A DNA stretch of 64,000 bases from a virus (IMGVR_UViG_3300002895_000002:1-64000), one strand, 5' to 3'; counted from the first letter of the stretch, positions 4,754 to 61,402 are shown. A program made the numbers and translations. Notes: generated from the letters alone by a model not told the origin.

Positions 4754-4774
4754 AGAGATTGTCTCCTGTCAGAC

Positions 4775-4862
4775 ATAAATAGGTGTGAGTAGGGACAGCG
4801 GTTCCTGTGCCGTTGCTGATGTGCCACTAACACTCAGCTTACCTGCTCAATGTTATTTATAA
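4775..4862 (+). ncRNA. HEG-associated three-way-junction element, copy E1
   Basis: P1 GAGUAGG/CCUGCUC, GA, P2 CAGCGG/CCGUUG with loop UUCCUGUG, P3 CUGA/UCAG, CUUA. ATAAATA on + at the left end and TATTTAT at the right end. Confidence 0.8.
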
Positions 4863-4896
4863 AGAAAAACTCAAAACCTACTAAAGGAGATCAAAC

Positions 4897-5400
4897 GTGA
4901 ACAATTTCAAAACCGCTCTCACCACCCTCAACGAAGCCAAAAACATCGAAGACTTCATCATGAACGCAGGTGAGGGTGACTATGGTACTGTTCACCCTTC
5001 ACATAATCACAAATCCCTCACTGCAATCTATCATGCTGTTGGTGGTGATGACAAACACCCTGAGCTCAAGAAGATGGTTGCTGATCCCGAGCATGCCAAG
5101 ACAGTGATCGCCGCCAAGAAGGCTGAGGATAAGAAGGCCGCACCGAAAGCCCCCAAGGCACCGAAAGCAGACAAAGGACCTTCGGACACAATGACCAAGG
5201 GTGAGTATAAGAAAACCGTCAGGGATGCTGCAAAGGGGTGGAAAGCAGACAACCCGGGCGAAAATCTCAGCCAAGTTGCTCATGATCTGGCTCATGCAAT
5301 GCTCACCGACCCGAGGCTTCACAATCACATCAAGAAGCATTACGGGACCACTTCCAAAGAGCACGCTGCTCAGATTGTGGCGGATGACCTGTATAATTAA
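4897..5400 (+). CDS. Putative internal head protein (capsid-targeting-like N-terminus)
   Basis: MNNFKTALTTLNE start, Lys/Ala-rich, late context. Confidence 0.5.
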   Translation: MNNFKTALTTLNEAKNIEDFIMNAGEGDYGTVHPSHNHKSLTAIYHAVGGDDKHPELKKMVADPEHAKTVIAAKKAEDKKAAPKAPKAPKADKGPSDTMTKGEYKKTVRDAAKGWKADNPGENLSQVAHDLAHAMLTDPRLHNHIKKHYGTTSKEHAAQIVADDLYN

Positions 5401-5432
5401 GACTTGATAAATAACATCATGGGGAATTTACT

Positions 5433-5720
5433 ATGAGCCATTTCAATAAATTAAAGAGTCTTCTAAACGAAGATCGATGGAAAGATGCCTGGTTTGCTGA
5501 AGAAAAAGCAAATAAATCCAATCATCCCGACGACCACTATGACGCTGCGGTAAAATATATGCATGCCGCAGCTGAAGCAAACGGTATGGGTGCCAGCGTT
5601 CAGGAGATGTCATACCGGAACAAAGCTGCCATACACCTCAAAAAGTCAGGGAAATCTGAGATTGCTAAGGAACATCTTCCTTCTGTTGGGAGACCGCACA
5701 ATTACTCAATGGATTACTAA
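5433..5720 (+). CDS. Putative internal head protein
   Basis: MSHFNKLKSLLNE start; ATAAATA at about 5408. Confidence 0.5.
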   Translation: MSHFNKLKSLLNEDRWKDAWFAEEKANKSNHPDDHYDAAVKYMHAAAEANGMGASVQEMSYRNKAAIHLKKSGKSEIAKEHLPSVGRPHNYSMDY

Positions 5721-5737
5721 CCCACAGGAACATTATC

Positions 5738-6304
5738 ATGGCACTTGATTTTTCTATTGACAAGGAAGAGAAGAGAGGGAAGCCGGGCACTCTTCATGAA
5801 AATGATAACGCCAATCTTGGCATGAAACAACCCGTCGCTGACATGCTCTCCGAACAGATGGGGATGGAGCTTGAGAGCTCACAGATCTACATCGGCATGG
5901 CTGTGTGGTGTGATCAAGTGTCGTTGCTTGGTGCTTCCTCCTGGTTCATGAAACAAGGGGCCGAGGAGTACACTCACTATCAGAAGCTCTTGGCGTTCGC
6001 TATGGACTGTGGTAACTCCATCACTCTGCATCCAATCAACGGTGTAGAGACGGAATTTGATAGCCTGCTGGACTGTTTTGCGAAGACGGTTGAGCATGAG
6101 AAGACCGTCTGGCGTTCGCTCCAGAAGATATATGACGCCGCTCTCAAGGCCAATGACGTTGAGGTTCGTGTCCTGCTTGAGGGCTTCCTCCAGGAGCAGA
6201 TCGAGGAAGTTCGTACAGTGACGAATGTTTATAATAGGCTTAAACTTGTTGGTACTGATGGTACCGGCATTTTATTGATAGATCAAGAGCTAGGAAAACG
6301 ATAA
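5738..6304 (+). CDS. ftnA: Ferritin (non-heme, FtnA-like)
   Basis: Ferroxidase-type motifs EQMGMELESSQIY, EEYTH, HEKTV, FLQEQIEE. Confidence 0.85.
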   Translation: MALDFSIDKEEKRGKPGTLHENDNANLGMKQPVADMLSEQMGMELESSQIYIGMAVWCDQVSLLGASSWFMKQGAEEYTHYQKLLAFAMDCGNSITLHPINGVETEFDSLLDCFAKTVEHEKTVWRSLQKIYDAALKANDVEVRVLLEGFLQEQIEEVRTVTNVYNRLKLVGTDGTGILLIDQELGKR

Positions 6305-6957
6305 GCATTTTTCTATTTTGCTGATATTCTCTCAATTTTTGTTTTCTGCTGTCGGAACATGGTGTTCTTTGTGCGACTTTCCGAGCTTTTGCTGAAGCTG
6401 AAATGTTATTACGATGTTCTTCGGAAAACTGTCTTCCTTTCATTGCCTTAGAACGCAATAACTTTTGTTCTTCTGACATTGGTGCTCTTTTTGAAGTTTT
6501 TGGTTTTCTCATTTTTTCTTTAGTTTCTTCTGTATGCTTGAAGTTCTTTGCTCTTTTAGATATTTCTTCTTTGCGACGTTTTGCTTCTTCAAGACCAAAC
6601 ATTTCTTCGTATGTTTTTCCTTTATACGGAGCATTTTTTGCTGAATTTTTTGATATTTTATTTTTACTTTCAATGGAATGGGTTGAAGTATATTTTCCAC
6701 CCAACGTAAGATTATATGTGTCTATCCGCGATAAGAAATGCTCATCTACTATACATGCTTCCCATTCCAATACATCTTCACGCGATAGACAATAATGAAG
6801 AATAATTCGTTCGAAGTTTTCTTTTCCGTATTTCTTGATTGCCTTTTGAATGGATATCCCTAAACCAAGATAACCATCAAGTTTCCAAGTTGAATGAACA
6901 CCGACATAGATTTTTTTCATTGATGAGATTACGAGTGAGATAAACGATGTGCCACAT
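6240..6957 (-). pseudogene. GIY-YIG (Seg-like) homing endonuclease with NUMOD3 repeats; +1 frameshift in an A7 run at 6911-6917
   Basis: MWHIVYLTRNLINE(K)KIYVGVHST...GYLGLG; GAGGTG RBS before ATG 6957. The 3' end overlaps the ferritin 3' end in antisense. Confidence 0.8.
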
Positions 6958-6969
6958 GATTTCACCTCA

Positions 6970-7059
6970 ATAAATAGACATGGCAGGGACATCAGAGTTT
7001 CACCTCCTCTGTTGGTCATCGATTGCCGTCGTGACCTTACCTGCTATTCTATTTATAAA
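6970..7059 (+). ncRNA. HEG-associated three-way-junction element, copy E2
   Basis: P1 UGGCAGG/CCUGCUA, GA, P2 CAUCAGAG/CUCUGUUG with loop UUUCACCUC, P3 GUCA/UGAC, CUUA; opposed late promoters. Confidence 0.8.
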
Positions 7060-11353: not shown

Positions 11354-11427
11354 GCTCCTATGGTGAAACGGCATCACGGTCCCCTGATTAGGGACAGTTC
11401 GGGGGTCAGAACCTCGTAGGAGTACCA
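11354..11427 (+). tRNA. Atypical or degenerate tRNA (anticodon GAT, Ile-like)
   Basis: Acceptor GCTCCTA/TAGGAGT plus ACCA; anticodon stem GTCCC/GGGAC; non-canonical T loop GTCAGAA and U37. Confidence 0.55.
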
Positions 11428-11433
11428 AGATAT

Positions 11434-11508
11434 GCACCTGTAGCTCAGCGGTAGAGCGGAGTCTTGATAAGGCTCGGGTCGGAAGTTCAATCCTTTCCAG
11501 GTGCACCA
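11434..11508 (+). tRNA. tRNA-Ile(GAT)
   Basis: Cloverleaf; GAGTC-TTGATAA-GGCTC; CCA end. Confidence 0.9.
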
Positions 11509-11525
11509 AGAAATATCAAAGAAAT

Positions 11526-11601
11526 GGGACTGTAGTGAAGCTGGTGCTCACGCATGGTTGAAGCCCATGAGATGACGGTTCAATCCCGTACGGTCCCGCC
11601 A
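11526..11601 (+). tRNA. tRNA-Phe(GAA)
   Basis: CATGG-TTGAAGC-CCATG; CCA end. Confidence 0.85.
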
Positions 11602-11605
11602 ACAT

Positions 11606-11681
11606 TCCGGTCAGGTCGACATGGCGGAGACGGGTGGCTGTTACCCACCAAGGCCCAGATCGTTGCTGGGGACCGGAGCCA
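11606..11681 (+). tRNA. tRNA-Asn(GTT), atypical T loop
   Basis: TCCGGTC/GACCGGA acceptor; GGTGG-CTGTTAC-CCACC; CCA end. Confidence 0.75.
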
Positions 11682-11726
11682 TAGGAGAAAGTCATGCGAA
11701 AACGCAAAGCACGAAAAAAGAATAAA

Positions 11727-11788
11727 AAAGATGTTGACAGGATAGGAAGAAGATAGTAAACTGGATTTACAAGTTGGATGGAACCGGA
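11727..11788 (+). repeat. Duplicated promoter and leader (copy 1; copy 2 at about 12160-12222)
   Basis: AAGATGTTGACAGG...GAAGAAGATAGTAAACTGGATTTACAAGTTGGATGGAACC is nearly identical in both copies. Confidence 0.85.
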
Positions 11789-12057
11789 ATACAACATCAG
11801 GTCCCAATATGGGTGCCGGTTCCAATAGTTCTCTAAAATTTCATACCCGCTCGGAAATCCGGACCAAGTGGTTGTTAACACGATAATACCACTAATGAGC
11901 AAATGGTTGGACTTGGTAACGGAATGCCTGTAAAAAATCACTGGGGGATTGGCTCACCCCCGGCACGATTTGCAAGAGGATGTTCCCTGCCGTCGGGAGC
12001 AAGGTGTTCATTGTCGATCCTCGGATGAGGGTTGATGCAAACACAGACGGCAAATTT

Positions 12058-12132
12058 GGACCGTGGGACGGCAGGTGTGGTCACTAGCCTTTCAAGCTAG
12101 TCAGATGGGATCGATACCCATACGGTCTACCA
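12058..12132 (+). tRNA. tRNA-Glu(TTC)
   Basis: CTAGC-CTTTCAA-GCTAG; CCA end. Confidence 0.85.
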
Positions 12133-12229
12133 AGAAACAAAAAGATAAAAAAGACAAAGAAGATGTTGACAGGAACTGAAGAAGATAGTAAACTGGATTT
12201 ACAAGTTGGATGGAACCAGAAGAAACTAG

Positions 12230-12720
12230 AAGACATTGTTCTGTGAAAACCAAATAGCAGTGAATACGCAGTAAGGTAAGGCCCACCGCGGGTAGTCCCA
12301 AAAGCGGCCACTAAAATGAAGAAGCTGACTTGGCCGGTTCCGAAAGGTTCCACAGCGGGTAATCTAATGGGGCGCCCGCCTCGTACAACCAAGTTGGTTC
12401 TGATTGGCAACCCGCTTTCAGCATTTACTCTTTCAAGTCATTTCGTGAATGTGGCACCTGGTTGACGCCCGGGCCTACGCTGGAAGACACGAGTGATGGG
12501 GTGAACGTCGCACCCAAAAGTTCAAGCCTTCATCCTGCGGGGTGTTTGGCTGGTCGGAAGGTTGAGCCAGCGAGTTCCTTCCGACTTCGGTCGACGTGGT
12601 GTCAAGGCAAGAATCGCCTGACTAACAAAGGGCTGGCAATTTACGGGGACGGTCGTCTAATTATAAGACATGACATGCCGCTACAGGCGAAGTCAGATCC
12701 TGGGGGAAGTGCCCAAGCAA
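12230..12720 (+). ncRNA. Candidate large structured ncRNA between tRNA genes
   Basis: No credible ORF. Nested helices TGACTTG/CAAGTCA, AGCGGGT/ACCCGCT, TTGACGCC/GGTGTCAA and GTCGGAAGG/CCTTCCGAC. Confidence 0.55.
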
Positions 12721-12801
12721 CCCCACCAAACTTTCAGATGTCGGGACGGCTAGCTGTGCACGGCAACCTCGGTTCGAGTCCGAGGATCTGAAACAATTTT
12801 C

Positions 12802-12874
12802 GGTCTATTGGTGAATGGGTATCATGTAAGCCTGTCACGCTTACGTACCGAGTTCGAGCCTCGGATAGACCGCC
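12802..12874 (+). tRNA. tRNA-Asp(GTC)
   Basis: TAAGC-CTGTCAC-GCTTA; TTCGAG T loop; CCA not encoded. Confidence 0.85.
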
Positions 12875-13023
12875 CTTGATTGTCGTGCTTATGCGTAGAG
12901 ACCTCATGTGATCCTTGCCAACCACGACCCGGCTTGGATGTACCAGATGTCTACGGTGGCTGGGTAAAGACCGGGTTTGCTGACCTTTCGTGGAGGGAAG
13001 GCGGCACTGATCACAAAAAATGA

Positions 13024-13098
13024 TGCGGGTTAGGGAAGAGGTCATCCCATCGGGTTCATATCCCGGGAATCAGTGGTTCGAATCCACTACCCGCAACC
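13024..13098 (+). tRNA. tRNA-Met(CAT), initiator-like
   Basis: TCGGG-TTCATAT-CCCGG, with three consecutive G-C pairs in the anticodon stem. Confidence 0.85.
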
Positions 13099-13214
13099 CA
13101 TAACAGAAATGGTCAGGGGAGTATGGAGTGGTCACGGCGTTGTGCCGCGGACGCCGTACAGAAACCAGACAAGTTCTGCCTGAAGGTTGGCCAGCCGGAA
13201 AGCAGGGCGTGCAT

Positions 13215-13296
13215 GTGGGTGTATAGGTCAAGGGGCGACCAGTGGGCTTCCAACCCACTCCGAAAGGGCGGAGTTCAACTCTCCACACCCGCTCCA
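13215..13296 (+). tRNA. Atypical tRNA-Gly(TCC)-like with 8-bp acceptor, 4-bp T stem and long variable arm
   Basis: GTGGGTGT/ACACCCGC, U73, CCA; AGTGGG-CTTCCAA-CCCACT; CCGAAAGG variable arm; GGAG-TTCAACT-CTCC. Confidence 0.7.
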
Positions 13297-13505
13297 AGAA
13301 ATGAAAAGATTTGTGGTCAGACGAATTGTCAACCGTAGCACTACCGCTAAGAGGGTGCAACTCCCAGAAGTAAATCGAGGTGGTATCGAAGGTTGATTCG
13401 GGCGTCATGAACCCGATATCTCTAGACCACAACCGGAATATTGCTTCAAAGCTCGATTGGTTGGCCGTGGACAACGTATAAAGGAACGGTCATTCTGTAA
13501 AAATT

Positions 13506-13580
13506 CGGTGAGTAAGTCAGTGGTAGACAGCCAGCTTTGGAGCCTGGTAGCCATCGGTTCGAATCCGATCTCACCGACCA
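13506..13580 (+). tRNA. tRNA-Pro(TGG)
   Basis: CGGTGAG/CTCACCG acceptor; TTTGGAG loop; CCA end. Confidence 0.9.
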
Positions 13581-13850
13581 GATTACTGATGATGGATAAC
13601 AGCCGAACCAGTTTGAGTCCGCGGCTCAAGATTGGTCGGGTGGCAACACATCGAGAACAAGTCATCAGCGATCCAAATAGCTGGCGGAAAAGATAAGTAA
13701 AGACTGCTACCAGCCGAGAAGTCATGCACGAGAAGTTTCTTGAACTGAATACCGTTACCAAACGCTGGAGGAAATAATCATGAATGTCTTTGCCTACTTC
13801 TTCTCCCATTAGGGAAGCCGCTAAAGGCTCCCGAGAAAGGAGAAGAGAAA

Positions 13851-14042
13851 ATGTCCAGAACTTTCGGTCACAAGAGGAACTGGTACAGTGTCGTAAAGAA
13901 AGCTGTCAAAGAAGGCAGCAAGACCTTCAGTCGCGCTGATGCCAGGAAGAAGCTTGAGATCATCAAGAGTGATCTTGAGAAAGCTGATGAGGTCGTGTTC
14001 TACCGTTATCAGGACTATGACGATTGGTGGAACTATGACTAG
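13851..14042 (+). CDS. Hypothetical protein
   Basis: AAAGGAG RBS. Confidence 0.55.
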   Translation: MSRTFGHKRNWYSVVKKAVKEGSKTFSRADARKKLEIIKSDLEKADEVVFYRYQDYDDWWNYD

Positions 14043-14050
14043 TAGAAAAC

Positions 14051-14122
14051 GCCCTGCCCGGTGGACCCGGACCTGACGCTTCGAACGTCGGAGGCACTGT
14101 TCGATTCAGTGGTGGGGTGCCA
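14051..14122 (+). tRNA. tRNA-Arg(TCG)
   Basis: TGACG-CTTCGAA-CGTCG; short D arm; CCA end. Confidence 0.75.
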
Positions 14123-14134
14123 AAGGAGAAAGTA

Positions 14135-14335
14135 ATGAGCCGAACAATCCAACGAGAACTGTCCGATAAGAAGATGTACTCCGAGAAGGATGTGGTGTTG
14201 TTTCTTGAAAAGTTTCTGAAAGACTCTTCATGTGGTGACATGTTCGATGGTCAGCCGTGGGGAGAGGTAGAGAACGAACGGTTGTACTTTGCTCTGTCAG
14301 AAATTGACTGCGGTAAGTTTAAGGTGACTGAATAA
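14135..14335 (+). CDS. Hypothetical protein
   Basis: AAGGAG RBS before MSRTIQ. Confidence 0.5.
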   Translation: MSRTIQRELSDKKMYSEKDVVLFLEKFLKDSSCGDMFDGQPWGEVENERLYFALSEIDCGKFKVTE

Positions 14336-14491
14336 TGGCAAGAGTTCTTGTGGAAATGGAAGTTTGGGTTGAGGAGATTAATGAAGATGATCCCGAGGTC
14401 GTGGAAGAGATCGTAAGAACTATCATCAATGACGGTGCAGACTCAACTGCTTCATCCGTCACCATCCATTCAGTAGAAGTTCAATAATCAC

Positions 14492-14560
14492 ACCCTGCCC
14501 GACGGACTTGGCTCTTGCGCTACGAACGCAGGAAGAGTGGTTCGACTCCACTGCGGGGTG
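14492..14560 (+). tRNA. tRNA-Arg(ACG)
   Basis: TTGCG-CTACGAA-CGCAG; TTCGAC T loop; followed by a terminator hairpin at about 14564-14596. Confidence 0.75.
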
Positions 14561-14746
14561 CAAAGGAGGGATAGACAAAATCTATCCCTCCTTTTCTATA
14601 TCTTTTACATCAAAATCCCGCCTGTAATCCACTTTCTTTCCCAACCCGTTTGTCCACTATTCCCACCTTATTTCCATCAAAAAAGTATTGACAAACCATC
14701 TCTTCGGTGTTATTCTGTTTATGAGAAAATGAAACGGGAGGTTGCT

Positions 14747-15210
14747 ATGTTCAGGTCAGATGCAGAATATCTTCAGGAAATGATGGAACTGGTCCTGGAA
14801 AGACACAAAGGCCAGGTTGATAGGAACGGACATCTTTATGTCCTCCACCCCATCCGAGTGATGATGGCATGTGAGACTGTTGAGCAAAAGCTCATCGCTC
14901 TGGGCACGACCTACTCGAGGATACCAAAACAACCTATGAAGAGCTGGTTGAGAAGTTCGGTGTTCGGACTGCAAACGGGATCCGAACAGTATCCAATCTC
15001 AAAACACTTCCTTACCCTGTATTCATTCAATCAGTTATCGATTCCGAAGATTACGATGCGATCTACGCCAAACACAAAGATCTGAAAGATAATATGTCTG
15101 AGGAGCGACTCAATAACCTGGACGCAGATACCAGAAAAAGACTGCTCAAGAAATATATCCCAGCAGTCAACCAGATTCAAATGAAACTGGAGGAGATGGT
15201 GAAACAATGA
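14747..15210 (+). CDS. HD-domain hydrolase (RelA/SpoT hydrolase, Mesh1-like), apparent frameshift at the G run 14902-14904
   Basis: HKGQVDRNGHLYVLHPIRV, then ALG(+G)HDLLEDT...KHKDLKDN in the next frame. Confidence 0.75.
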
Positions 15211-15449
15211 GACTAGTCAAAACTCTGGATGGTCGCCAGTTTTATGTCCCAGAACAGTCAGAGGGGGAAGTGGAAGCGTATGTTATCTACGATCCGAATG
15301 GTTATTATGTTGGCGAAATTGACTTGTCACCGTTCGTTATAGCCAACAAAGATACTGAATACATCGAGTATAAACGCAAGCTGGAAAGAATGCAACTTGC
15401 CGGTTATATCGTCGAACAAAAGAGAGGATATAATCAATCTAAACAATGA
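15207..15449 (+). CDS. Hypothetical protein
   Basis: Coupled ORF with RBS. Confidence 0.55.
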   Translation: MRLVKTLDGRQFYVPEQSEGEVEAYVIYDPNGYYVGEIDLSPFVIANKDTEYIEYKRKLERMQLAGYIVEQKRGYNQSKQ

Positions 15450-15458
15450 GGAGGTATT

Positions 15459-15866
15459 ATGATGAACCCGTGGGTTAGTATTCCAGGAACGTTGTTATTT
15501 GATCCTCCTAGAGATGGGTTGAAGAAGACCCATCGCGGCGGTTCGAACTGGGCCGTCATTCAGGTCGATAACGGCATCGGCTACTTCTACCGCTGGTGGG
15601 TACGGAAACGCTACGGCGTCATCCTGCAGCCGCCGGTATGGGGTTGCCATTGTACCGTTATCCGCGACAAAGACCGTGTTGAGATCCCGAGAAACATCGC
15701 AGAGGCACTACATGGCTGCAAGGTCGTGCTTGAGTACTCTGTGGAATGGGAAAAGCACTGGAATTTTTTTACATTACCTGTAATTAGTGAAGATGCAACG
15801 AATCTCCGACAGCAACTCGGGCTGAAAGATTATCCTCTGCACATAACTTTCGGACGGATTGTGTAA
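15459..15866 (+). CDS. 2H phosphoesterase-like protein
   Basis: Two HxT motifs (HCTV and HITF) about 60 aa apart. Confidence 0.65.
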   Translation: MMNPWVSIPGTLLFDPPRDGLKKTHRGGSNWAVIQVDNGIGYFYRWWVRKRYGVILQPPVWGCHCTVIRDKDRVEIPRNIAEALHGCKVVLEYSVEWEKHWNFFTLPVISEDATNLRQQLGLKDYPLHITFGRIV

Positions 15867-16178
15867 AAACCGTTGACATTTCTTTTCTCTTCAGTTATAA
15901 TAAAATCATAATCAAGGAGGAAAAAATGCAATACGGTCTTAATTATGAAAATGAACAGATGATGATAGAAAAGCCAAAGAAAAGAAAAATGGAACTTATA
16001 CTTTTCGCGGAGTTGCATTCCGAGTAATAGATGGAATTATAACTCATTTTTCTGTGGATGGAAAAATATTTCAGCGGTGTAATGGTTTCAATGTTTATAT
16101 CGGTGAAGTTCCCGGACCATGTGGATATTATCCCGCAGAAGCCAAAAAAAGCTCTTTCAAAGATTTAGGAGGTAAATA

Positions 16179-16373
16179 ATGACACTCGACAGATTTCTTT
16201 CTGAAATGGCAGAAGACATCGAGCGGTTCCGTCAGTACTGGGTAGAGAACCACATGGAAGACCCGAATGGATTTCCGATGGAGATGTCAGCGGATAATGC
16301 CGGAGCATGGTTCGAGCAGTTCGAATGTTTCCGTGAACTGAAAAGATTCGAAAATTTCAGAGAACCTGAATGA
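16179..16373 (+). CDS. Hypothetical protein
   Basis: GGAGG RBS. Confidence 0.55.
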   Translation: MTLDRFLSEMAEDIERFRQYWVENHMEDPNGFPMEMSADNAGAWFEQFECFRELKRFENFREPE

Positions 16374-16532
16374 TGTTACCCAAATGAAACCGCGGATGAC
16401 TGTCATAGGGAGCACTGAGACTTTCGAACTTTGTAGGAGACTCTTCCCGGAGTTCGACGTGTTCCTTGCAGATGAACCCAGAGATGACCGCAAGGCATCC
16501 ATAGAAGACTTCTTCGAGTAAAGGAGAGCACC

Positions 16533-16799
16533 ATGTTACTTTTCAGAATCAAAAACACCAAGACCGGGCAGTATTCCAAGGGTGGTCATCAGCCGTGGTT
16601 CTCCAAGAAAGGTAAGATCTGGAACGGCCGAGGCCCCTTCCATGGACACCTGGCTCTGTTCAACGACGATCGACATGGGCTGAGACTTCCGAAGGAATAC
16701 AAGGATTGCGTGGTGGAAGTTATGGTGGTTGGGGAACAACCGACCTGCACCCAGTCCGTCGAAGAATACTGCAACAGCGTTGGATATTCCGCGAAATAA
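16533..16799 (+). CDS. Hypothetical protein
   Basis: AAAGGAG RBS. Confidence 0.55.
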   Translation: MLLFRIKNTKTGQYSKGGHQPWFSKKGKIWNGRGPFHGHLALFNDDRHGLRLPKEYKDCVVEVMVVGEQPTCTQSVEEYCNSVGYSAK

Positions 16800-16858
16800 A
16801 TTTGACAGACCATTTCGTTCATGTTATTATAGAAACACAATAAGGAACGGAGGAAAAA

Positions 16859-17131
16859 ATGAAAAACCCAGAGATCAGAGTGTTCGTTGTAGGTTCGGCC
16901 AACGGCGGAAAGTCAACCGTTGTGGAACTCATCGCAGAACGGCTGGCCGACCTCGGTGTTCCGGTTGAAGTCAAGAAGATTTTCGACGAGGAGGCTCCAC
17001 GCCGCCCTGCCACAACCACCTACAGATGTCTCGATGCTCTGAAAGAAAGAGGCATCACGGTGAAGGTTGAGGAAGTTCAGTCGATGCGGAATCTGTCTGA
17101 AGGGATAAGGAAGTTCTACCACGTCGGATAA
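16859..17131 (+). CDS. Small P-loop protein
   Basis: VVGSANGGKSTV Walker A. Confidence 0.55.
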   Translation: MKNPEIRVFVVGSANGGKSTVVELIAERLADLGVPVEVKKIFDEEAPRRPATTTYRCLDALKERGITVKVEEVQSMRNLSEGIRKFYHVG

Positions 17132-17140
17132 ATCTCAAGA

Positions 17141-17188
17141 ACCTTGGTAAGGAAGAAGTCGCCGGTTCGATCCCGGCCATCGGCTCCA
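17141..17188 (+). pseudogene. 3' half of tRNA-Thr(GGT)
   Basis: CC-TTGGTAA-GGAAG AAGTC GCCGG-TTCGATC-CCGGC CATCGGC TCCA; no 5' half found in the window. Confidence 0.7.
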
Positions 17189-17211
17189 CAATGCACCACA
17201 AGCATTGAGAT

Positions 17212-17658
17212 ATGATGCCCTGTTTCGTAAACAGGAAGAACAAGGTGAGAGTCCTTGGTGGTGCTCCAAGATATTATGCTGGTGTGACCCGAGTGGTTGC
17301 ATCCACTAACGACGATGACGGATGTATTGCTCTTACTTTCGATTGTTCTGGGTTTGATGCTTTCAATCGGACTGTCGCTAAGAGAGAGTGGTATAACCCA
17401 AACACCAAACAGCACGATGCGACCTACTTCGAGTATTATGAGCGGAAACCCAGAGATATAGTTCCGCTCGTCGAATCCTGGTACTTTGCTATTTCTGACA
17501 TCGAGGACGGTTCTGCTGAGAAAGAGTTCGGTCACTTCGAGGTGGAGGACACGAAGAACGACTCAGTGTTCTACCTCTATCAGAAGGATGTTGAACTCGG
17601 ATGCAAAATGACCTATGTTCAGTGGCTTGAAGACAAAGTCATGGCTACCCTGCTCTGA
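17212..17658 (+). CDS. Hypothetical protein
   Basis: 148-aa ORF. Confidence 0.55.
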   Translation: MMPCFVNRKNKVRVLGGAPRYYAGVTRVVASTNDDDGCIALTFDCSGFDAFNRTVAKREWYNPNTKQHDATYFEYYERKPRDIVPLVESWYFAISDIEDGSAEKEFGHFEVEDTKNDSVFYLYQKDVELGCKMTYVQWLEDKVMATLL

Positions 17659-17666
17659 GGTAAACA

Positions 17667-17885
17667 ATGCTCAAAAAAAGAACTTTTGCAATCGATGTCA
17701 TTGAAGTTGAGAATGGAGAGAAGTTCATACCAATCGAGTTGCTTCCCACCTACGTTCAAGCAGCTGCGTCAAAAGCGATTGTCGCATTGATAGAAGACCT
17801 TCATGCCCAAGGGTTTATTTCTATCAGGGAACGGGATGAGATGCTGGAAACATATGACGCGAACAGCTCATTGGTTCCTGAATAA
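17667..17885 (+). CDS. Hypothetical protein
   Basis: GAGG RBS. Confidence 0.55.
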   Translation: MLKKRTFAIDVIEVENGEKFIPIELLPTYVQAAASKAIVALIEDLHAQGFISIRERDEMLETYDANSSLVPE

Positions 17886-17891
17886 TCAAAT

Positions 17892-17963
17892 ACCCTCGTG
17901 GTCCAAAGGATGGGCTCCGCACTCCTAAGGCGGTGAATGTCGGTTCGAGTCCGACCGAGGGTG
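17892..17963 (+). tRNA. tRNA-Arg(CCT)
   Basis: ACCCTCG/CGAGGGT acceptor; CTCCTAA loop; GTCGG-TTCGAGT-CCGAC. Confidence 0.85.
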
Positions 17964-17987
17964 TCAGATATAAAGAAAGACATCCAT

Positions 17988-18224
17988 ATGTTAAATCAAA
18001 AGTCAGAGGATGATTTCTATAAAGCACTACGGGTTATCATTGATCGCATTGACCAAGCGAAGTCAACTCGTGATGCTGATGTTATTTGTTTTGATATTGA
18101 CCAACTCAGTAAGGAGTACAAAGAAATATTTTCCGGACATTACGGTAAGCAGATTCTCCGTGATAAGAAACAGAGTGTTTTGGACCAACTGAGTGTTCAC
18201 TGTAAAATGAAGGGCATACGATAA
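17988..18224 (+). CDS. Hypothetical protein
   Basis: ORF from internal ATG. Confidence 0.45.
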   Translation: MLNQKSEDDFYKALRVIIDRIDQAKSTRDADVICFDIDQLSKEYKEIFSGHYGKQILRDKKQSVLDQLSVHCKMKGIR

Positions 18225-18285
18225 AAGTGATTGACACCAACAATAAAGTATGTTACTATCTAACTATACTAAAACGGAGGGTCAA

Positions 18286-18519
18286 ATGAAGAAAAATCAA
18301 GATCACATCAATTCAGTTATTCGTTACTTCAACGAAGAATTTCCAATGCTGGAACGAGCAATGGATTTCATAAATGAAGTACATGATCTCCACGACATAG
18401 ATATAAAAACAATCAAGAAAGTTGCGAAGGATCATGAAGTTGATTATAGAGATATAATAATGATGATCAGACTATTGGAGCATGAGTGTGTTTTGTGGGA
18501 GAAATCCAACCAAATATAA
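18286..18519 (+). CDS. Hypothetical protein
   Basis: Promoter plus GGAGG RBS. Confidence 0.55.
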   Translation: MKKNQDHINSVIRYFNEEFPMLERAMDFINEVHDLHDIDIKTIKKVAKDHEVDYRDIIMMIRLLEHECVLWEKSNQI

Positions 18520-18531
18520 ACGGAGGTCACC

Positions 18532-18927
18532 ATGAGATACCAAGAGCTTTACGAACAGATCGCCCCGGGCCATTTCCGCCCGACCGTTCCTTTCTTCGAC
18601 GGCATCCCATGCGACTTCATGGTGGACCGCCACATTGTCTCGGATGAGAAGGGAGAGTGGCACTGGGTTGAGCTCGGCCGCCCGGTGTTCGTCATCAACA
18701 TCTGCCGGATGCTTGAGCACATCGATCCGGAATACTTCGAGTATGACGGCGATTATGATGGGCACATGGCCAATACCGAGTTGGCTGAGCAGAAGATGCG
18801 GGAGTGGGCCAAGCGGAACAACTTCTGCTTCTATGCCGCTCCTCGTGAAGACTTCTCTACCACAGCGGCATGCCGGGAAGCCTATGCTGGCGGTTTCAAC
18901 GGTGTCATCATGGAAGACCTTTCATAA
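18532..18927 (+). CDS. Hypothetical protein
   Basis: GGAGG RBS; GC3-rich codons. Confidence 0.6.
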   Translation: MRYQELYEQIAPGHFRPTVPFFDGIPCDFMVDRHIVSDEKGEWHWVELGRPVFVINICRMLEHIDPEYFEYDGDYDGHMANTELAEQKMREWAKRNNFCFYAAPREDFSTTAACREAYAGGFNGVIMEDLS

Positions 18928-19401
18928 CACATGCCCCATCCGGCGGATCCGGACTTGAGTCTTCTAAACTCGAAGGGAAGTTTCAACTACTTCATGGGGT
19001 GCCAAGGAGAACACATGAAACAAACATTGAAAGATCCAAATCCAACAGAACGAGTATGCTATCACGATTGGAAATTCACAGGCCGTGACAGGAACGGTAA
19101 TGCCACCTACACATGCAGCCGCTGTGGAGAATCATATTGACTGTCGATGATCTGCTGAAAGCCATTGAGAACACCACACCTGAGGAATGGCAAAGACTCA
19201 GAGAGCAACTCCGCTTACAGGAGAAAAAACTCAATGACCTTTGTGCAGCGGGTAAACATCAAGACATCTCATCAATCCTACCTTCTCTGGAAGTGATGCC
19301 TAGTGGAGATGTTCAAGATGTGGCCGAAGTGTTTATGAAAAGGTGGAAACACTATGTTCACCATCTGATAAATAACAATTTCCAAGAAAAGGAGATTCAT
19401 C

Positions 19402-19782
19402 ATGGCAAAGCCCAAAGGTTTCAAGAAATATGTCACTGAAGAGAAGGAAGGCCGGAATGTTTATGCTTATGTTGTTCACCAGGACACAAAAGGTGATCGT
19501 TATGTTCTGAACAAGGACAAGAGCGCATTTATTCCAGCTGAAGTTCGCAACGAAAAAGGTGAAATGGTAAGTAACCTTCATAACGCTCATTCCGTTCATG
19601 TCGGCCATTCAACCAGTTATAAAGGGCTCACGCCGGCACACCGCAATCAGATCTTCTCGTCGGTTCCTGCTCAGGTTGGACACATCGACAAATATGAACA
19701 CGATGTTGACGTGATGGATGAGTTTCAACTCGGCGCCGGCTCTGCGGTACACCACACCCAAAATTTGGATGTCGAAGACTAA
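19402..19782 (+). CDS. Putative internal head protein
   Basis: MAKPKGFKKYVTE start; ATAAATA at about 19368. Confidence 0.5.
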   Translation: MAKPKGFKKYVTEEKEGRNVYAYVVHQDTKGDRYVLNKDKSAFIPAEVRNEKGEMVSNLHNAHSVHVGHSTSYKGLTPAHRNQIFSSVPAQVGHIDKYEHDVDVMDEFQLGAGSAVHHTQNLDVED

Positions 19783-19803
19783 CATCCAAAAGGAAAATAA
19801 CGA

Positions 19804-20136
19804 ATGTTCGGGAACATCTATCAGCACTTCAAAGGGAACATCTACGTCGAATTGACTCGGGCAGTGGATTCAGAGACACAGGAAGAGGTCGTGGTGTACT
19901 ACCAACTCTCCGAACCCGACAAGATATGGACACGACCTGCCAAGATGTTCGATGAAGAAGTAGAGAAGAATGGAGTGATGGTACCGCGATTCAGAAAAAC
20001 CGGTGGGATCATCACGCTGCCTGCGCAGTATTACCAAAACGATTCTTCACCATGTGATGCATGCGGATGCAACCCAAAAAACGGCGGTAGTGGAATATGC
20101 AACTGCACACTGGGCGGACCAACGATTACGTGTTGA
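19804..20136 (+). CDS. DUF1653-domain protein with Cys-rich tail
   Basis: YQHFKGNIY...HSE-like DSETQEEVVVYY...WTRPAKMFDE. Confidence 0.75.
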   Translation: MFGNIYQHFKGNIYVELTRAVDSETQEEVVVYYQLSEPDKIWTRPAKMFDEEVEKNGVMVPRFRKTGGIITLPAQYYQNDSSPCDACGCNPKNGGSGICNCTLGGPTITC

Positions 20137-20230
20137 TAAAATGTCCTGGATGCGGCAAGGATGCCAAGAATTATCCAGGACATACACGTGATCTTGAATG
20201 TAGCCACTGTAATCTCAGGTCATTCATAAG

Positions 20231-20485
20231 ATGAAACTGAAACCCTTTGAGCGGTTGTACACCATAGATGCGCCTCACTTCAACGCTGGTTGCATTGCAC
20301 CGATGGGTCAGAAAGTAACAGCAGCTGCCCCGATCATTCACTACATGGTCGGGTGGGACTACAACAAGATCGCCACGTACACGACGAAGAAGGGATGGAA
20401 GATGTCATTCCAAGATATCGACGTGTCGGAGGTAACGAATGAGAAGAAGCAGAAACCTCGTTCTCTTGTAGATTTTTTCGATTAG
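20231..20485 (+). CDS. Hypothetical protein
   Basis: ORF; 3' end converges on the HEG. Confidence 0.55.
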   Translation: MKLKPFERLYTIDAPHFNAGCIAPMGQKVTAAAPIIHYMVGWDYNKIATYTTKKGWKMSFQDIDVSEVTNEKKQKPRSLVDFFD

Positions 20486-21269: not shown

Positions 21270-21284
21270 GATTCACCTCAGAAA

Positions 21285-21366
21285 GGAGTGTGATGGGACA
21301 GCGGAGTTCACCTCCTCCGTTGGTTGAAGTCCCGCAACCTCAACCTAACCATCATATCTATTTATA
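21285..21366 (+). ncRNA. HEG-associated three-way-junction element, copy E3
   Basis: P1 UGAUGG/CCAUCA, GA, P2 CAGCGGAG/CUCCGUUG with loop UUCACCUC, P3 GUUGA/UCAAC, CUAA. The + strand late promoter is degenerate in this copy. Confidence 0.8.
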
Positions 21367-21875
21367 TGAGACGATCAAGAAATCTTGCTAAACGAATGAA
21401 GCGCTTTAGAAGTAGACTAGTAGGAGGTGGAGTTCATAGGGACGTCGGAGCTATCTATCAGTACTTCCGACGATATCTATATGAGCATCAGCTCGACCCG
21501 TTGGTGATGGCTCATGTCCAGTTCTTGACCGACGGAAACATCTCACCACTGAACAGAGCATGTGAGGAGCTGTTGAAGAACGTGTTCACCTGTAAGATAT
21601 GCGACCGGGAGATGATCCACCACATCGAGGAGCATCATCTGGTGCCACGGTGCTTCAAGGGGAAGCAGACCATCGACATCCACCGGATCTGTCACCGGAA
21701 GATCCACTCGGTCCTGACGGAGAAGGAACTGGAAACCACTTACAACACCGTCGAGGCTCTGCGGGAACACCCGGAGATTGCCAAGTTCAGAGAGTGGGTC
21801 GCAGGGAAGCACCCGGACTTCGTGGTGGACTTCAAGATGTCCGCGAATATGAAGTCAAAAAAGAGAAGAAAATAG
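21366..21875 (+). CDS. Small HNH-type Zn-binding protein
   Basis: CKICDR...EEHHLVPR...HRICHRKIH motif. Confidence 0.7.
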   Translation: MRRSRNLAKRMKRFRSRLVGGGVHRDVGAIYQYFRRYLYEHQLDPLVMAHVQFLTDGNISPLNRACEELLKNVFTCKICDREMIHHIEEHHLVPRCFKGKQTIDIHRICHRKIHSVLTEKELETTYNTVEALREHPEIAKFREWVAGKHPDFVVDFKMSANMKSKKRRK

Positions 21876-21957
21876 AACCCCACGAACCCGGGCAATGACC
21901 TACGACCATAATGGCGGAGAAAGTCCTCTACCGGATCGCACCCCGGGGTTCCCGGAT

Positions 21958-23820: not shown

Positions 23821-23830
23821 CGGAGGCGTA

Positions 23831-49067: not shown

Positions 49068-50009
49068 ATGAAACATATTGGTACGAGTAGTTTATGGGTA
49101 GAAAAATACCGCCCAAGATGCGTCGCAGACTACCTGGCAACACCTAAGGTCAAATCAATTCTCGACCACATCATTCAGACCAACGACATTCCTCATCTCC
49201 TGCTCTACTCCAAGAGCCCAGGCACAGGTAAGACCACGTTCGCAAACGTGGTGGCTAAAGAGCTCGAATGTGACCTGCTCTACAAGAACGGGTCAATCGA
49301 CACTAGCATCGACAGCATCCGGTATGACGTGCAGCAGTTCACAATGACCAGCTCACTGATGGGTGGGAAGAAGCTCGTGGTGCTCGACGAGGCAGAGCGG
49401 CTCTCACAGAATGCCCAGGAAGCACTGAAAGTCCTGATGGAACAGTGTGAAGGAAACGCACGGTTCATCATCTGTACCAACAACATGCAACGGGTGGTGG
49501 CTCCGGTTATCAGTCGTTGTCAGATCGTTGAGTTTGACCATACTGAGGCGGACAAGCAAGCACTGATGATTCAGTATTTCAAGCGGGTCCAGTTCATCCT
49601 CTCCAACGAAGGAGTTGAGTACGACAAAGCAGTGCTCGCAGAGCTCATCAAGAAGCTCTACCCAGACCTTCGCAAGACTATCGGTCAGCTCCAGCAATTC
49701 TCCAAAACCCACAAGAGCATCACCCAAGAAGTGTTAGGTGATCTCGACGATAGTCAGACCCTGGATCTCGTTGCGAAGATGAAGGCAAAGAAGTTCGAAC
49801 CGATCCGAGCAGCCTGCAGTAACATTGACCCAAGTGGATTTTTCTCAACGTTCTATGCTGAGATATCAAATCTTCTTCAGCCAGAGTGCATTCCCGATAC
49901 AATTTTGATTTTAGCCAGGTACGCGAACACGCATTGCCTAACTACAGATACCGAAATAAATCTCGCGGCATGCATCGTTGAGCTCATGTCAACCATCAAG
50001 TGGAAATAA
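49068..50009 (+). CDS. 44: Clamp loader large subunit (gp44)
   Basis: LWVEKYRP, SPGTGKTT, VLDEAE, SRC motif. Confidence 0.95.
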   Translation: MKHIGTSSLWVEKYRPRCVADYLATPKVKSILDHIIQTNDIPHLLLYSKSPGTGKTTFANVVAKELECDLLYKNGSIDTSIDSIRYDVQQFTMTSSLMGGKKLVVLDEAERLSQNAQEALKVLMEQCEGNARFIICTNNMQRVVAPVISRCQIVEFDHTEADKQALMIQYFKRVQFILSNEGVEYDKAVLAELIKKLYPDLRKTIGQLQQFSKTHKSITQEVLGDLDDSQTLDLVAKMKAKKFEPIRAACSNIDPSGFFSTFYAEISNLLQPECIPDTILILARYANTHCLTTDTEINLAACIVELMSTIKWK

Positions 50010-50910
50010 TTACAGAAGATTCTATCCGGAGAGACCAACCAGGTGTTGAAGAAAGTCTCCGGATAGAATCTTTCTTTTTCAAACCAGGGCTGATATTGAT
50101 TGGAGGGACAACAGTTCCTTTGTTGGCTAGGAGCTGTTTTGGTGATAGGAGATGCTCATTACAGAAATCCCAAAGATCTGCCGTTTTAAATTCCTTACCA
50201 TCAGGGCTGGTTAGTATATAGAGTTTATTTGTTATCCTTATGTTTTTGCCTTGGGTCTTTTCCGGCAATGGGCTGAATTGATTTGGGGCATCATATAGTT
50301 CGGACAACAACCATCCTTCGGTGTTCATGAGACGTTGGACTGAATTTGGTTTGTGTAGGCCCAATGGAATTTCGATTTTTGGGACAACAGATCCAAGATG
50401 AGCCAAGAGATGCTTAGGAGAAAGGGTTAGGTGAGTACACCACTGAATCAGGTCATTGATTAGATATTCATTGCCATTTGGGTCTGTGAGATTGTAGAAT
50501 TTTTTATTGTGTGGTGTCGATCCTTTTATGAATGGTTTCATTCTTTCTCTGATTTGTGGTTGGTTTGTTATTTTCCCTTGATAGTTTGGGTTATTTTCTC
50601 CGGATCGAAACCCAGAACCGCCCGGAATTTGATTATAAGTGTCTGTTCTAGATATAAACCAGTCATCAACAATCATTTTTTCTAGTTCATAGGCGTGTTC
50701 ATCCGATAAAGCTTCGTGAAGAATTATTCGTTCGAAGTTTTCTCGGCCATAAAGTTTGATTGCATCAGAAATTATGGTTCCGGACCCAAGGTATGGATCA
50801 CTTTTGGTATGAGAAGAATGTTTTCCAACGTAGATTTTACCGTTGATCTTATTGCGGATGAGATAAACGAAATGATAGACTGGGTCTTTTTTACCACGAC
50901 GGGAACGCAT
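49996..50910 (-). CDS. GIY-YIG (Seg-like) homing endonuclease with duplicated C-terminal domain
   Basis: HFVYLIRNKINGKIYVGKHS...YLGSG...YNQIPGG; two LT(D/S)P(N/D)G.E repeats. Confidence 0.85.
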   Translation of the reverse strand: MRSRRGKKDPVYHFVYLIRNKINGKIYVGKHSSHTKSDPYLGSGTIISDAIKLYGRENFERIILHEALSDEHAYELEKMIVDDWFISRTDTYNQIPGGSGFRSGENNPNYQGKITNQPQIRERMKPFIKGSTPHNKKFYNLTDPNGNEYLINDLIQWCTHLTLSPKHLLAHLGSVVPKIEIPLGLHKPNSVQRLMNTEGWLLSELYDAPNQFSPLPEKTQGKNIRITNKLYILTSPDGKEFKTADLWDFCNEHLLSPKQLLANKGTVVPPINISPGLKKKDSIRRLSSTPGWSLRIESSVIIST

Positions 50911-50923
50911 GACATTCACCTCA

Positions 50924-51012
50924 ATAAATAGATGTGACGGGGACAGTGGAGTTTCACCTCCTCCATTGGTTGTCAGTGCCACCTGCAACCTTACCTGTTC
51001 CTTTTATTTATC
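50924..51012 (+). ncRNA. HEG-associated three-way-junction element, copy E6
   Basis: P1 GACGGG/CCUGUU, GA, P2 CAGUGGAG/CUCCAUUG with loop UUUCACCUC, P3 GUUG/CAAC, CUUA; opposed late promoters. Confidence 0.8.
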
Positions 51013-51046
51013 ATTTCCCAAAAAATAAAGAAAATAGAGTCAACTA

Positions 51047-51226
51047 ATGAATAAAGAAATGAAGATCAGATGTCAGGTTTGTGGGGAATGGATTCCTGTT
51101 CGTTATATTCACGAGCATGTTGATTGGCAACACCAGGTCAATACTGAATACCATAGTTACATCATGAGTTTAACAATCGAACAGATATTAGAAAATTCCA
51201 AGAATCAATTCCAGATTAGAATTTGA
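51047..51226 (+). CDS. Small Zn-finger-like hypothetical protein
   Basis: Manual translation: MNKEMKIRCQVCGEW...HEHVDWQH. Confidence 0.4.
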   Translation: MNKEMKIRCQVCGEWIPVRYIHEHVDWQHQVNTEYHSYIMSLTIEQILENSKNQFQIRI

Positions 51227-59171: not shown

Positions 59172-59227
59172 CACCCAACCCCCTTCATGTTATTATTGAA
59201 TTACAATAAAGACATGAAGGGGTTACA

Positions 59228-59817
59228 ATGAACACCACTGCATTTGATGAATTCTTTCAAGTAACCAGCAAATATGAGGCGGTCATTCACGTTCGTTTGT
59301 TTAGAATGATCGAAGCATACATCACCAACCACACCGATGAGCTCGGACGGGTGTCCTTTCCAAGCGATCCCTGGTCACGTGTTCCCTACAACTTCACTAT
59401 GACATCATCACCAGACATGCGGTGGTTAAAAACAAACTTGCCAACCGGGACTTCACCGTTGAGAGCGGCCGGCGGTACTTCACTCTGCTGGATGATTGGC
59501 GGACCCCTGTCATGGTTCGGATCCTTAAAGAGGCTGAAGCAATTGTTGCTGGGTGGCAAATGAAGATGAAAGACAAGCTGGAACTCATCTTCAAACACCG
59601 TGACGACCCGGAAGGATTTGAAGCAGTCGGAACCCACGATCAGGGAATGTTCAGGGTACACTTCAAAAACGGTGACTCCTTTACCGTTCAGAATAAGATG
59701 ATCATCAACGTCAGCAAGAACGGTAAACTGTTCAATCAGTGGCCCTGTACTTTTGGAAACATCAAAAAAGGTGGGGGAGTTGTACAAGAAACAATCCGAG
59801 AAATGGATGAAGTCTGA
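59228..59817 (+). CDS. Hypothetical early protein, apparent frameshift in the A5 run at about 59426
   Basis: Adding one A joins RWLK to NKLANRDF. Confidence 0.5.
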
Positions 59818-60027
59818 ATTCTAAGGAGCTATTTTGAGAGACTACAGGGATCAAGGCATCAAGGGATTAGCACCTGACCAACTCAGGTATCTCTTCGAGG
59901 AGGAGATTTACCCTGCCGCAAAAGGCATGCCGTTCAGGGAAGCCGATAACAAGTATGAAGAACGCATTTTGAATTTTGGCTATCAGTGCTTCATCCGTGG
60001 TGTCAAGCTCGGAAAGGAGCGGTTCAG

Positions 60028-60369
60028 ATGAGCAAGAAAACCTATCAGATACCCTTTGACTTTGAAGGGAACCAACTGGCTTATCCTGATTCCAGATACA
60101 ACCCAAACACGCGGACCTGGGATACTATCTGGAAAGACAACTACTTCTTTGAAGCTACACTTACCTATGATGGGTTCAGCCGCGGTCGCTCTGCTGCTGG
60201 TTTCGATCTGAAGGATGAGGAAGGACATCTCTACTACCTGATGATGTCCGAGATGGACCGTATCATGGCTCTTGGTGGCTGGGATGGCAATAAGATCACT
60301 GGGAAATGGACCTTCGTCAAGAAAGGTCAGAACTACGGGATCACGCTGATAGAGAGGGCCGAGAGATGA
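60028..60369 (+). CDS. Hypothetical protein
   Basis: AAAGGAG RBS before MSKKTY. Confidence 0.6.
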   Translation: MSKKTYQIPFDFEGNQLAYPDSRYNPNTRTWDTIWKDNYFFEATLTYDGFSRGRSAAGFDLKDEEGHLYYLMMSEMDRIMALGGWDGNKITGKWTFVKKGQNYGITLIERAER

Positions 60370-60642
60370 TCGAAGGAGCCGCTCTTCTTGGAAAGCTCGT
60401 CCTCACACTGGTGCTCTACCTGAACGTGGCATATCTCATGGCAGAGCTCATCAAGAAAAATCGGGGTGACTGATGAAAGTCATGATAGCTGGTGGATCCG
60501 TGCATAGAGCCGAGATCGTAAGGAGAATTATGGACACGATGGAGAAGGACGGGATTACATCTACGCCGGGGTGCTTGAACTGGCGGTGCTGGGTGAACGC
60601 ATCACAAGTGACACCATGGAACAGTACGATCTCTAGGAGGCA

Positions 60643-61299
60643 TCATTGATAATGAAGATGCATGGCTAAGATAATTATAAGTTCCTTTCTTTCTCGTGCT
60701 AATCTTTTATGTGTAGCTGACATTTTATTTTTAGTTTCTTCTGAAATTATCTGTTTTGCCCGGGCTTCCTTGATTTTATTTTTAGATTCATCTGAATGTT
60801 GTTTTCCAAAGAACGAATTTTTATTTCCTTTGTGGGAATCGCTTTGTTGTTTGATGTAGTCCTCGGAATAGGCATACCCATTTGCAAATTTAGAATGCCT
60901 GGTTTTTGATATTTTTTGTTTAGTGCTTTCGGATTGAATGTAACCCATTTTAGCATCAGATATTTTTTGTTTATGTTCGTCTGAATGTGAATAATTTATT
61001 CGTAAAAGTAAATAATCTTTTGACCCATATCTCTTACAATTTGTCATTCTTAGAATTGCTTTAGCCATTTTTGGGCCTTTGACTTTATGGCCACGCCAGA
61101 TACGAGCAAGAAGCAGATGGGCAATGAAGTGTTCCCTGATGGGTAGATTGACTCTGTTCCATGAACCATGTATATCTTCTATTCCATCAAGCTTTGCAAA
61201 CGACTTTGGAATAATGTGATGACTTTCGGTTTGTTTTTTGATCTTGGAAGTGTTTCAGTTGTGTTCAATAAGACGGTCGTAAATGGACTGGTAATTCAT
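60643..61299 (-). pseudogene. HNH homing endonuclease, family copy 5, with in-frame TGA at codon 15 (61255-61257)
   Basis: MNYQSIYDRLIEHN*NTSKIKKQTESHHIIPK...HFIAHLLLARIWRGHKVKGPKMAK in a single frame. Confidence 0.85.
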
Positions 61300-61310
61300 G
61301 ACAGTTCCCC

Positions 61311-61402
61311 TATAAATAGATGTGACGAGGACAGCAGGGAAGTTCCCCTCTCTGTTGGTCGTGTACGCCCATACCGACCTTACTCGTTCTATTCTATTTA
61401 TA
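61311..61402 (+). ncRNA. HEG-associated three-way-junction element, copy E7
   Basis: P1 GACGAG/CUCGUU, GA, P2 CAGCAGGGA/UCUCUGUUG with loop AGUUCCCC, P3 GUCG/CGAC, CUUA; opposed TATAAATA boxes. Confidence 0.8.

Follow-up and report, generated by a model that had tools for sequence, protein, structure and literature searches.

A repeated, covarying RNA element beside the homing endonuclease genes of a T4-like phage has a hairpin loop matched to the adjacent ribosome-binding site

Described systems and how the element compares

In the IS10 RNA-IN/RNA-OUT system, the nuclease gene of a mobile element is controlled by a countertranscript made from a promoter that faces its own; the 5′ ends of the two RNAs overlap, and RNA-OUT forms a stem-loop whose loop pairs with the translation start region of its target. 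In the par system of pAD1, direct repeats that are read in opposite directions give RNA I and RNA II the complementarity that masks the target ribosome site, and the two RNAs converge on a common bidirectional terminator, the target being a small toxin peptide. The c4 RNA of phages P1 and P7 is an antisense RNA with loops that pair with ribosome-site targets, and loop and target co-vary between phages, setting specificity; c4 shares its transcript with the targets, and the complementarity is inverted. Millard et al. are said to have described, in 2010, a long antisense RNA of cyanophage S-PM2, CfrI, which links psbA and a homing endonuclease gene (HEG). Here we describe a repeated RNA element that adjoins the start of HEGs in a stretch of phage DNA of 64,000 nucleotides (nt; IMGVR_UViG_3300002895_000002:1-64000, hereafter the window), and in which the loop of one hairpin (P2) is a direct repeat of the Shine-Dalgarno (SD) sequence and spacer of the adjacent HEG.

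For several HEGs of T4-type phages (I-TevI, I-TevII, I-TevIII, segB and mobE of Aeh1), a cis-acting hairpin hides the ribosome site on long transcripts, a late promoter inside the hairpin and immediately upstream of the HEG gives late expression, and autorepression by I-TevI is known in T4 (PMC2988022). The transcriptional and translational regulation of free-standing HEGs has been listed among the little-known areas (PMC2988022). The HEGs described here likewise belong to a T4-like phage, have a predicted late promoter immediately upstream (31 of 31 copies) and an RNA structure beside the ribosome site, but that ribosome site (SD2) is not sequestered in cis.

The promoter-core motifs of the element are face-to-face, 67–78 bp apart with the left one at consensus in 19 of 31 copies, and, as in IS10, the loop is, at the level of sequence, complementary to the HEG translation start region in all 31. 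Unlike in IS10, the ribosome site lies outside the overlap, and access to it would be by way of a second copy, a direct repeat, in the loop; the structure is a three-way junction, the promoters are of the T4 late type, the target is a homing endonuclease and the transcripts are predicted ones. The element has a co-varying direct repeat, which opposite transcription, predicted from promoter motifs, would turn into complementarity as in pAD1 par, but its RNAs would overlap at their 5′ ends, no terminator was found, and the targets are HNH/NUMOD3 or GIY-YIG proteins of 160–310 amino acids (aa). Its loop co-varies with the ribosome site as in P1/P7 c4, but the repeat is direct and would need opposite-strand transcription. 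CfrI is the nearest report, being a HEG-associated antisense RNA (as is proposed for the element) in a T4-like phage; the element differs from it in being repeated, portable and covarying, with a loop matched to the SD.

The repeat of the ribosome site in the P2 loop

The window comprises bases 1-64000 of a 213,116 bp IMG/VR virus record that is rated complete, and genome coordinates given below refer to the whole record. The original prediction, made from the window, described a structured element in seven copies, and a pattern search recovers these seven against 0.01 expected from shuffled sequences. The first pattern gave 14 copies in the genome and a looser scan two extra, and a covariance model built from these 16 copies (R1) recovers all of them, at 61–98 bits and all on the + strand, while the next match reaches only 25 bits. 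A weak R1 match at genome 70861-70906 was rejected as a copy, being merely a late promoter followed by a hairpin. Nine metagenomic contigs from related T4-like phages were reached through HNH protein homologs, and exact-word scans of IMG/VR and of JGI metagenomes gave four additional loci; a loose IUPAC pattern was dropped for IMG/VR, where it returned mostly chance single matches. With R1, 15 further full copies were found on nine other metagenomic phage contigs, extending the element to 31 copies. Relatives are present in sludge or biofilm habitats.

In every one of the 31 copies, a word of 5–10 nt is common to the P2 loop and the 20 nt that separate the element from the HEG start codon, and this matched repeat is found with both of the unrelated HEG families, on ten separate contigs or records. 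The longest common word has a mean length of 7.5 nt for cognate pairs of loop and ribosome site and 4.8 nt for non-cognate pairs. Its summed length of 232 nt (permuted mean 152, sd 7) was reached by none of 100,000 permutations, and the predicted duplex between the loop and the translation start region has an energy of −11.5 kcal/mol for cognate and −6.8 kcal/mol for non-cognate pairs, with none of 20,000 permutations as low; as the copies are related to one another, both permutation tests overstate independence. The proposal that each loop repeats the SD of its own HEG, and that the two change together, is therefore borne out in all copies and extends to homologs, and the seven pairs of loop and SD coordinates first given for the window are all correct.

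There are about 16 different words, among them, as read on the element strand, TTTCACCTC, AGTTCCCCT, GTTCCCTT, ATTCTCCC, TTTCTCCC, GTGACTCC, CGGTTTCTCC and TGCTCC, together with TTACCCC, AGTTCTCCTA, TTCTCCCA, ACCTTCCT, TCCTGT, TCCTC, TCCTG and TCCTA. Near-identical backbones carry the same one-base change at both sites (TCCTG/TCCTA, GTTCCCCT/GTTCCCTT and CTCCTA/CTCCCA). The common word covers the SD core and also spacer bases outside the region that pairs with 16S rRNA (e.g., GGAGTCAC, AGGGGAACT), so that ribosome binding as a shared constraint cannot account for the identity. For words of the TCTCCT/TTTCCT classes, the single C/T difference would be a G.U pair in the duplex between the HEG mRNA and the + strand loop, giving nine pairs.

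Fold, placement and the seven window copies

RNAalifold gives a three-way junction, made up of a closing helix and the hairpins P2 and P3. The closing helix is 5–6 bp long (consensus ACGGG/CCCGU), the junction linkers are an invariant GACA and CUUA, and the P3 hairpin carries a bulged U. Canonical pairs fill 98.5–99.4% of the cells in the 31-copy alignment, percentages that favour the structure because the alignment was fitted to the covariance model, and only 32–52% of cells pair in a control with the 3′ partner slid by 1–3 columns. The number of pair types is unaffected by the fitting: compensatory changes occur at 14 pairs, one of which is CG in 12 copies, UA in 10, AU in five and GC in four, and the observed covariation was reached by no shuffle. 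A P1 helix joining the AT-rich boxes at the two ends was rejected as a structural requirement, since the 7 nt core of the boxes is invariant and the adjacent base covaries inconsistently, and we prefer to read the boxes as promoters; a few copies (genome 108277 and 30348) are able to extend the closing helix as far as the boxes.

The helices are near-purely Watson-Crick, with four G.U pairs in about 494 internal cells; P3, with 248 cells, has none. RNA families selected on one strand usually show several percent G.U. The folding energies of the two strands are equal (−24.7 and −24.2 kcal/mol), and an attempt to call the transcribed strand from folding energy was abandoned because the strands do not differ. 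We read the scarcity of G.U together with the equal energies as selection for folding on both strands. Strand-specific G.U is found at two helix-end pairs only, 13-88 (23 of 29 copies) and 25-46 (25 of 31), both of which favour the + (element) strand.

The element always adjoins the start of a HEG. All 16 genome copies abut the start codon of a − strand gene, and the 15 copies from elsewhere have the same placement and orientation relative to their HEG. By domain matches (NUMOD3; SegE_GIY-YIG/GIY-YIG), these genes fall into two unrelated families, MobE-like HNH/NUMOD3 and Seg-like GIY-YIG. On contig L135 the HEG is co-directional with its neighbours and the orientation of the element relative to it is unchanged; since the orientation tracks the HEG, the element is part of the HEG cassette and not of the flanking genes. 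Three Logan contigs of related phages, L139 (1-30), L141 (1-33) and L142 (1-33), terminate just upstream of a HEG start, as expected where the element is an assembly-breaking repeat, and the first of them terminates inside the element (partial R1 match, L139:1-30). Two near-identical IMG/VR contigs (L144:2732-2817 and L145:5203-5288) differ in the HEG start, ATT in one and ATG in the other, and have identical elements and matched words.

A search of the window against Rfam 15 at the gathering threshold returned tRNAs only, and nine copies searched at E ≤ 5 gave just a chance match to snoR121 (19 bits, threshold 50). No copy was found in the T4 genome, one copy had no blastn match among GenBank phages, and no element of this kind was described in the literature searched. 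This agrees with the initial view that it is not a described family, and the element constitutes a new, HEG-associated family of covarying RNA. The window encodes a Gp23-type major capsid protein, gp39/gp52-type topoisomerase subunits, a family-B DNA polymerase and an NAD-dependent ligase, and carries 18 tRNA genes in several clusters (11354-27248, all + strand), a gene content which indicates that the phage is a distant relative of T4. Sequence searches found no close cultured relative, and a gp23-based search of IMG/VR found no relatives.

The seven window copies are numbered C1 to C7 from left to right; in each, the element and its loop word are on the + strand, and the HEG and its ribosome-site word are on the − strand. 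In C1 (4775-4860, R1 score 74.6 bits) the junction lies between a left box, ATAAATAG, and a right box, TATTTAT, and the word TCCTGT is found in the loop (4803-4808) and at the ribosome site (4764-4769; ACAGGA in the HEG mRNA) of an HNH/NUMOD3 gene of 200 aa (4151-4753). C2 (6970-7056, 89.4 bits) has TTTCACCTC at 6998-7006 in the loop and at 6960-6968 (GAGGTGAAA in the mRNA), next to a frameshifted GIY-YIG gene (6240-6957), in which the reading frame from the ATG at 6955-6957 ends after 26 aa and the YIG part is found in a different frame, past an A-run at 6911-6917. C3 (21280-21365, 61.3 bits) has lost its left box (AGAAAGGA); the word TTCACCTC is present at 21307-21314 (loop) and 21272-21279, and the HNH/NUMOD3 gene encodes 311 aa (20334-21269). 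In C4 (28665-28748, 78.2 bits) the ribosome-site word GGTCTCCTC (28649-28657, with the exact TCCTC at 28653-28657) and the loop word GGTTTCCTC (28691-28699) differ at one position, C against T, which gives G.U in the mRNA:loop duplex, and the HNH/NUMOD3 product of 194 aa (28061-28645) is 36% identical to T4 MobE over 95% of its length.

C5 (30348-30431, 84.4 bits) repeats TCCTG at 30376-30380 (loop) and 30337-30341 and adjoins an HNH/NUMOD3 gene of 166 aa (29829-30329). C6 (50924-51011, 92.1 bits) repeats TTCACCTC at 50953-50960 (loop) and 50915-50922, beside a SegE-like GIY-YIG gene of 304 aa (49996-50910). Its left box, ATAAATAG (50924-50931, + strand), is an inverted late-promoter core that points rightwards, and its right box, tGATAAATA (51005-51013, − strand), is the predicted late promoter of the HEG. 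On the element strand, C6 is followed by a 59-aa CxxC..H..H open reading frame (ORF; 51047-51226, +), and a second such ORF of 59 aa, 88% identical, lies downstream of C8 (genome 64502-64681, equivalent to L008:1606-1785). The two sit at different GIY-YIG cassettes, and may be a cassette gene that is served by the left promoter box. C7 (61312-61401, 94.3 bits) has AGTTCCCCT in the loop (61341-61349) and at the ribosome site (61303-61311; AGGGGAACT in the mRNA) of a decayed HNH gene with an in-frame stop at codon 15 (60640-61299). A near-consensus sigma-70-type promoter (TTGACT, 16 nt, TATAAT) directly follows C7 at 61419-61446 (+), and TTGACA...TATAAT pairs also occur after several other copies (genome 193334+ and 206484+; contigs L134, L136 and L140).

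Proposed opposite transcription and competing explanations

Outside the elements, the motif (G/T)ATAAATA occurs 58 times on the + strand and about five times on the − strand, and 36 of the + strand occurrences are less than 120 nt upstream of + strand genes, gp23 among them. Examples are found at window 21999-22006 and at genome 24487, 39719 and 3497, with a T usually preceding the core; GATAAATA, which is located 38 nt upstream of the gp23 start, is equal in frequency to TATAAATA. From this strand bias and location, we identify the motif as the T4-type late promoter of the phage. The right (HEG-side) box of the element, read on the HEG strand, matches the consensus in all 31 copies. The left box, read on the element strand, has the ATAAATA core in 29 copies and the consensus first base in 19, and the AT-rich ends of the element are inverted promoter cores. 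T4 late transcripts usually start 6–7 nt downstream of the promoter box. At that distance, both predicted RNAs would start at the base of the closing helix and would be complementary over their first ~65 nt. The idea of a + strand RNA gains support that it did not have at the outset, in that the left end of the element is an inverted late promoter aimed to make it. HEG homologs in the genome that lack the element (97660-98424, −; 211949-212584, +; 25569-25799, +) have only a late promoter about 20–35 nt upstream of the start, and the element therefore resembles a leader module that has been placed between the promoter and the ribosome site.

Folds of the 31 HEG leaders contain no conserved pairing partner of SD2, and a word complementary to the repeat is absent from the HEG-sense RNA in 27 of the 31 copies, the other four having one at scattered positions only. 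A riboswitch-like cis model, with alternating anti-SD and anti-anti-SD, was rejected since neither a third complementary copy nor a conserved pairing of SD2 was found; use of the loop SD by a small upstream ORF was rejected by eye, there being no start codon at a suitable distance. As the repeat has no partner in cis, the remaining route to complementarity is opposite transcription of the two strands, just as the analogy with pAD1 par had implied. Pairing between opposite-strand transcripts is the best explanation of the repeat, and we give it about an even chance of being correct. In about one third of copies SD2 is in the loop of a small local hairpin (e.g., CGGU...ACCG stems), which would make loop-loop kissing possible.

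The element may thus be a regulatory cassette that travels with HEGs, in which a three-way junction is flanked by face-to-face late-promoter cores. From the right box, the HEG mRNA would contain the folded junction first, followed by SD2 and the start codon. From the left box, or by read-through from upstream + strand genes, an RNA of the opposite strand would contain the mirror junction first and then the downstream + strand gene. The P2 loop of this second RNA would be complementary to the HEG mRNA, given that the word stands as a direct repeat in the DNA, and could pair with the SD and spacer, as a kissing complex where SD2 is in a small hairpin, and block binding of the 30S subunit. Pairing might extend to a leader duplex of ~70 bp and be followed by cleavage by RNase III, and the outcome would be that translation of the HEG is limited or timed. 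The full proposal, of a portable countertranscript module that moves with HEGs of two unrelated families and whose loops each match the ribosome site of their own cassette, and of several partly orthogonal antisense brakes in one genome, is put forward tentatively and falls somewhat short of an even chance. That the endonucleases are toxic, and are kept off by the module, is presumed.

The fold, the matched repeat, the promoter motifs and the lack of a partner in cis are observed; both transcripts, their pairing and the repression are inferred, opposite transcription from promoter motifs. Several observations count against this proposal. In 12 of 31 copies the left box does not fit the consensus (the first base is C or A in 10 and the box is lost in two), where the + strand RNA would need read-through from upstream + strand genes, and one of the two copies without a left box has the longest loop match, of 10 nt. 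No intrinsic terminator was found after the element, so that the discrete + strand RNA of ~75–85 nt envisaged originally is not indicated, and the RNA probably continues into the downstream + strand gene as its 5′ leader. The exact match is just 5–6 nt in five word classes, three of which reach 9 nt with one G.U pair allowed, and mismatches in the flanks favour G.U-compatible changes weakly (16 against 8, with 31 transversions, all copies). Decayed HEGs keep intact elements, as in C2, C7 and the genome copies 101144 and 143180, the HEGs of the last two being truncated. Every loop has a generic anti-SD core, and the TTCACCTC word is common to four copies in the genome. Specificity between loop and SD is graded, not absolute: of the original claim that the module is self-specific, the cognate preference stands, while the four copies with one word, the generic cores and the −6.8 kcal/mol of non-cognate duplexes speak against it.

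If the element acted purely in cis, as a leader of the HEG mRNA, the junction would stabilise or tune the late transcript, the SD-like loop sequence (SD1) would serve as a ribosome standby or decoy site, and no opposite-strand RNA would be needed. We regard this as unlikely, though it is the most credible of the competing accounts. It fits the HEG-side late promoter in all 31 copies with its predicted start at the junction base, the equally good folding of the − strand, and the resemblance to an inserted leader in comparison with element-free HEGs, which have just a late promoter 20–35 nt upstream. It leaves the co-variation of SD1 and SD2 unexplained, as both would bind the same 16S rRNA and yet the word includes spacer outside the 16S pairing, and no cis anti-SD is able to pair with both. 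Nor does it explain the conserved inverted promoter box beside SD2, or the two G.U pairs that are present on the + strand only. In another account, the element is a bidirectional late-promoter unit, which mainly restores expression of the downstream + strand gene after HEG insertion, with the junction as a 5′ stabiliser of both mRNAs and the direct repeat kept for a reason at the DNA level, such as deletion by short homology, by which the HEG start would be joined to the SD copy in the loop.

Such a bidirectional unit would agree with the aim of the left box at the downstream + strand gene, with no terminator between, and with the small + strand ORFs that two copies have of their own, and a deletion between the repeats would spare promoter, SD and start codon. 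No deleted form was found among the 31 copies, however, repeats of 5 nt are not long enough to drive events by homology, the C/T difference that is conserved in TCTCCT/TTTCCT is tolerated as a G.U pair in RNA but is a mismatch in DNA, and on contig L135 the neighbouring genes lie antisense to the element strand; we consider this explanation improbable. Least credible, and already disfavoured, is that the loop/SD identity is incidental and reflects generic pyrimidine-rich, anti-SD-like strings that are co-inherited. Every word does have a CTCC, TCCT or CCCC core, and non-cognate pairs still have 4.8 nt in common on average, but neither set of permutations reached the observed match, the ~16 words include matched one-base co-changes in near-identical backbones, and the matches run into spacer bases that are not part of the SD.

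The control of free-standing homing endonucleases is an acknowledged gap, for which the element offers a concrete candidate mechanism, and its ~16 loop/SD variants form a natural series of compensatory pairs. Should only the cis reading hold, the element would still be a new, strongly covarying phage RNA leader. If the proposed pairing is true, antisense control would be added to the known cis-hairpin and autorepressor controls of HEGs, and Rfam would gain a new RNA family that is also a set of short orthogonal translational repressors. As a countertranscript module, the element would add a layer of HEG control that is new, and its matched loop/SD pairs would make up a natural library.

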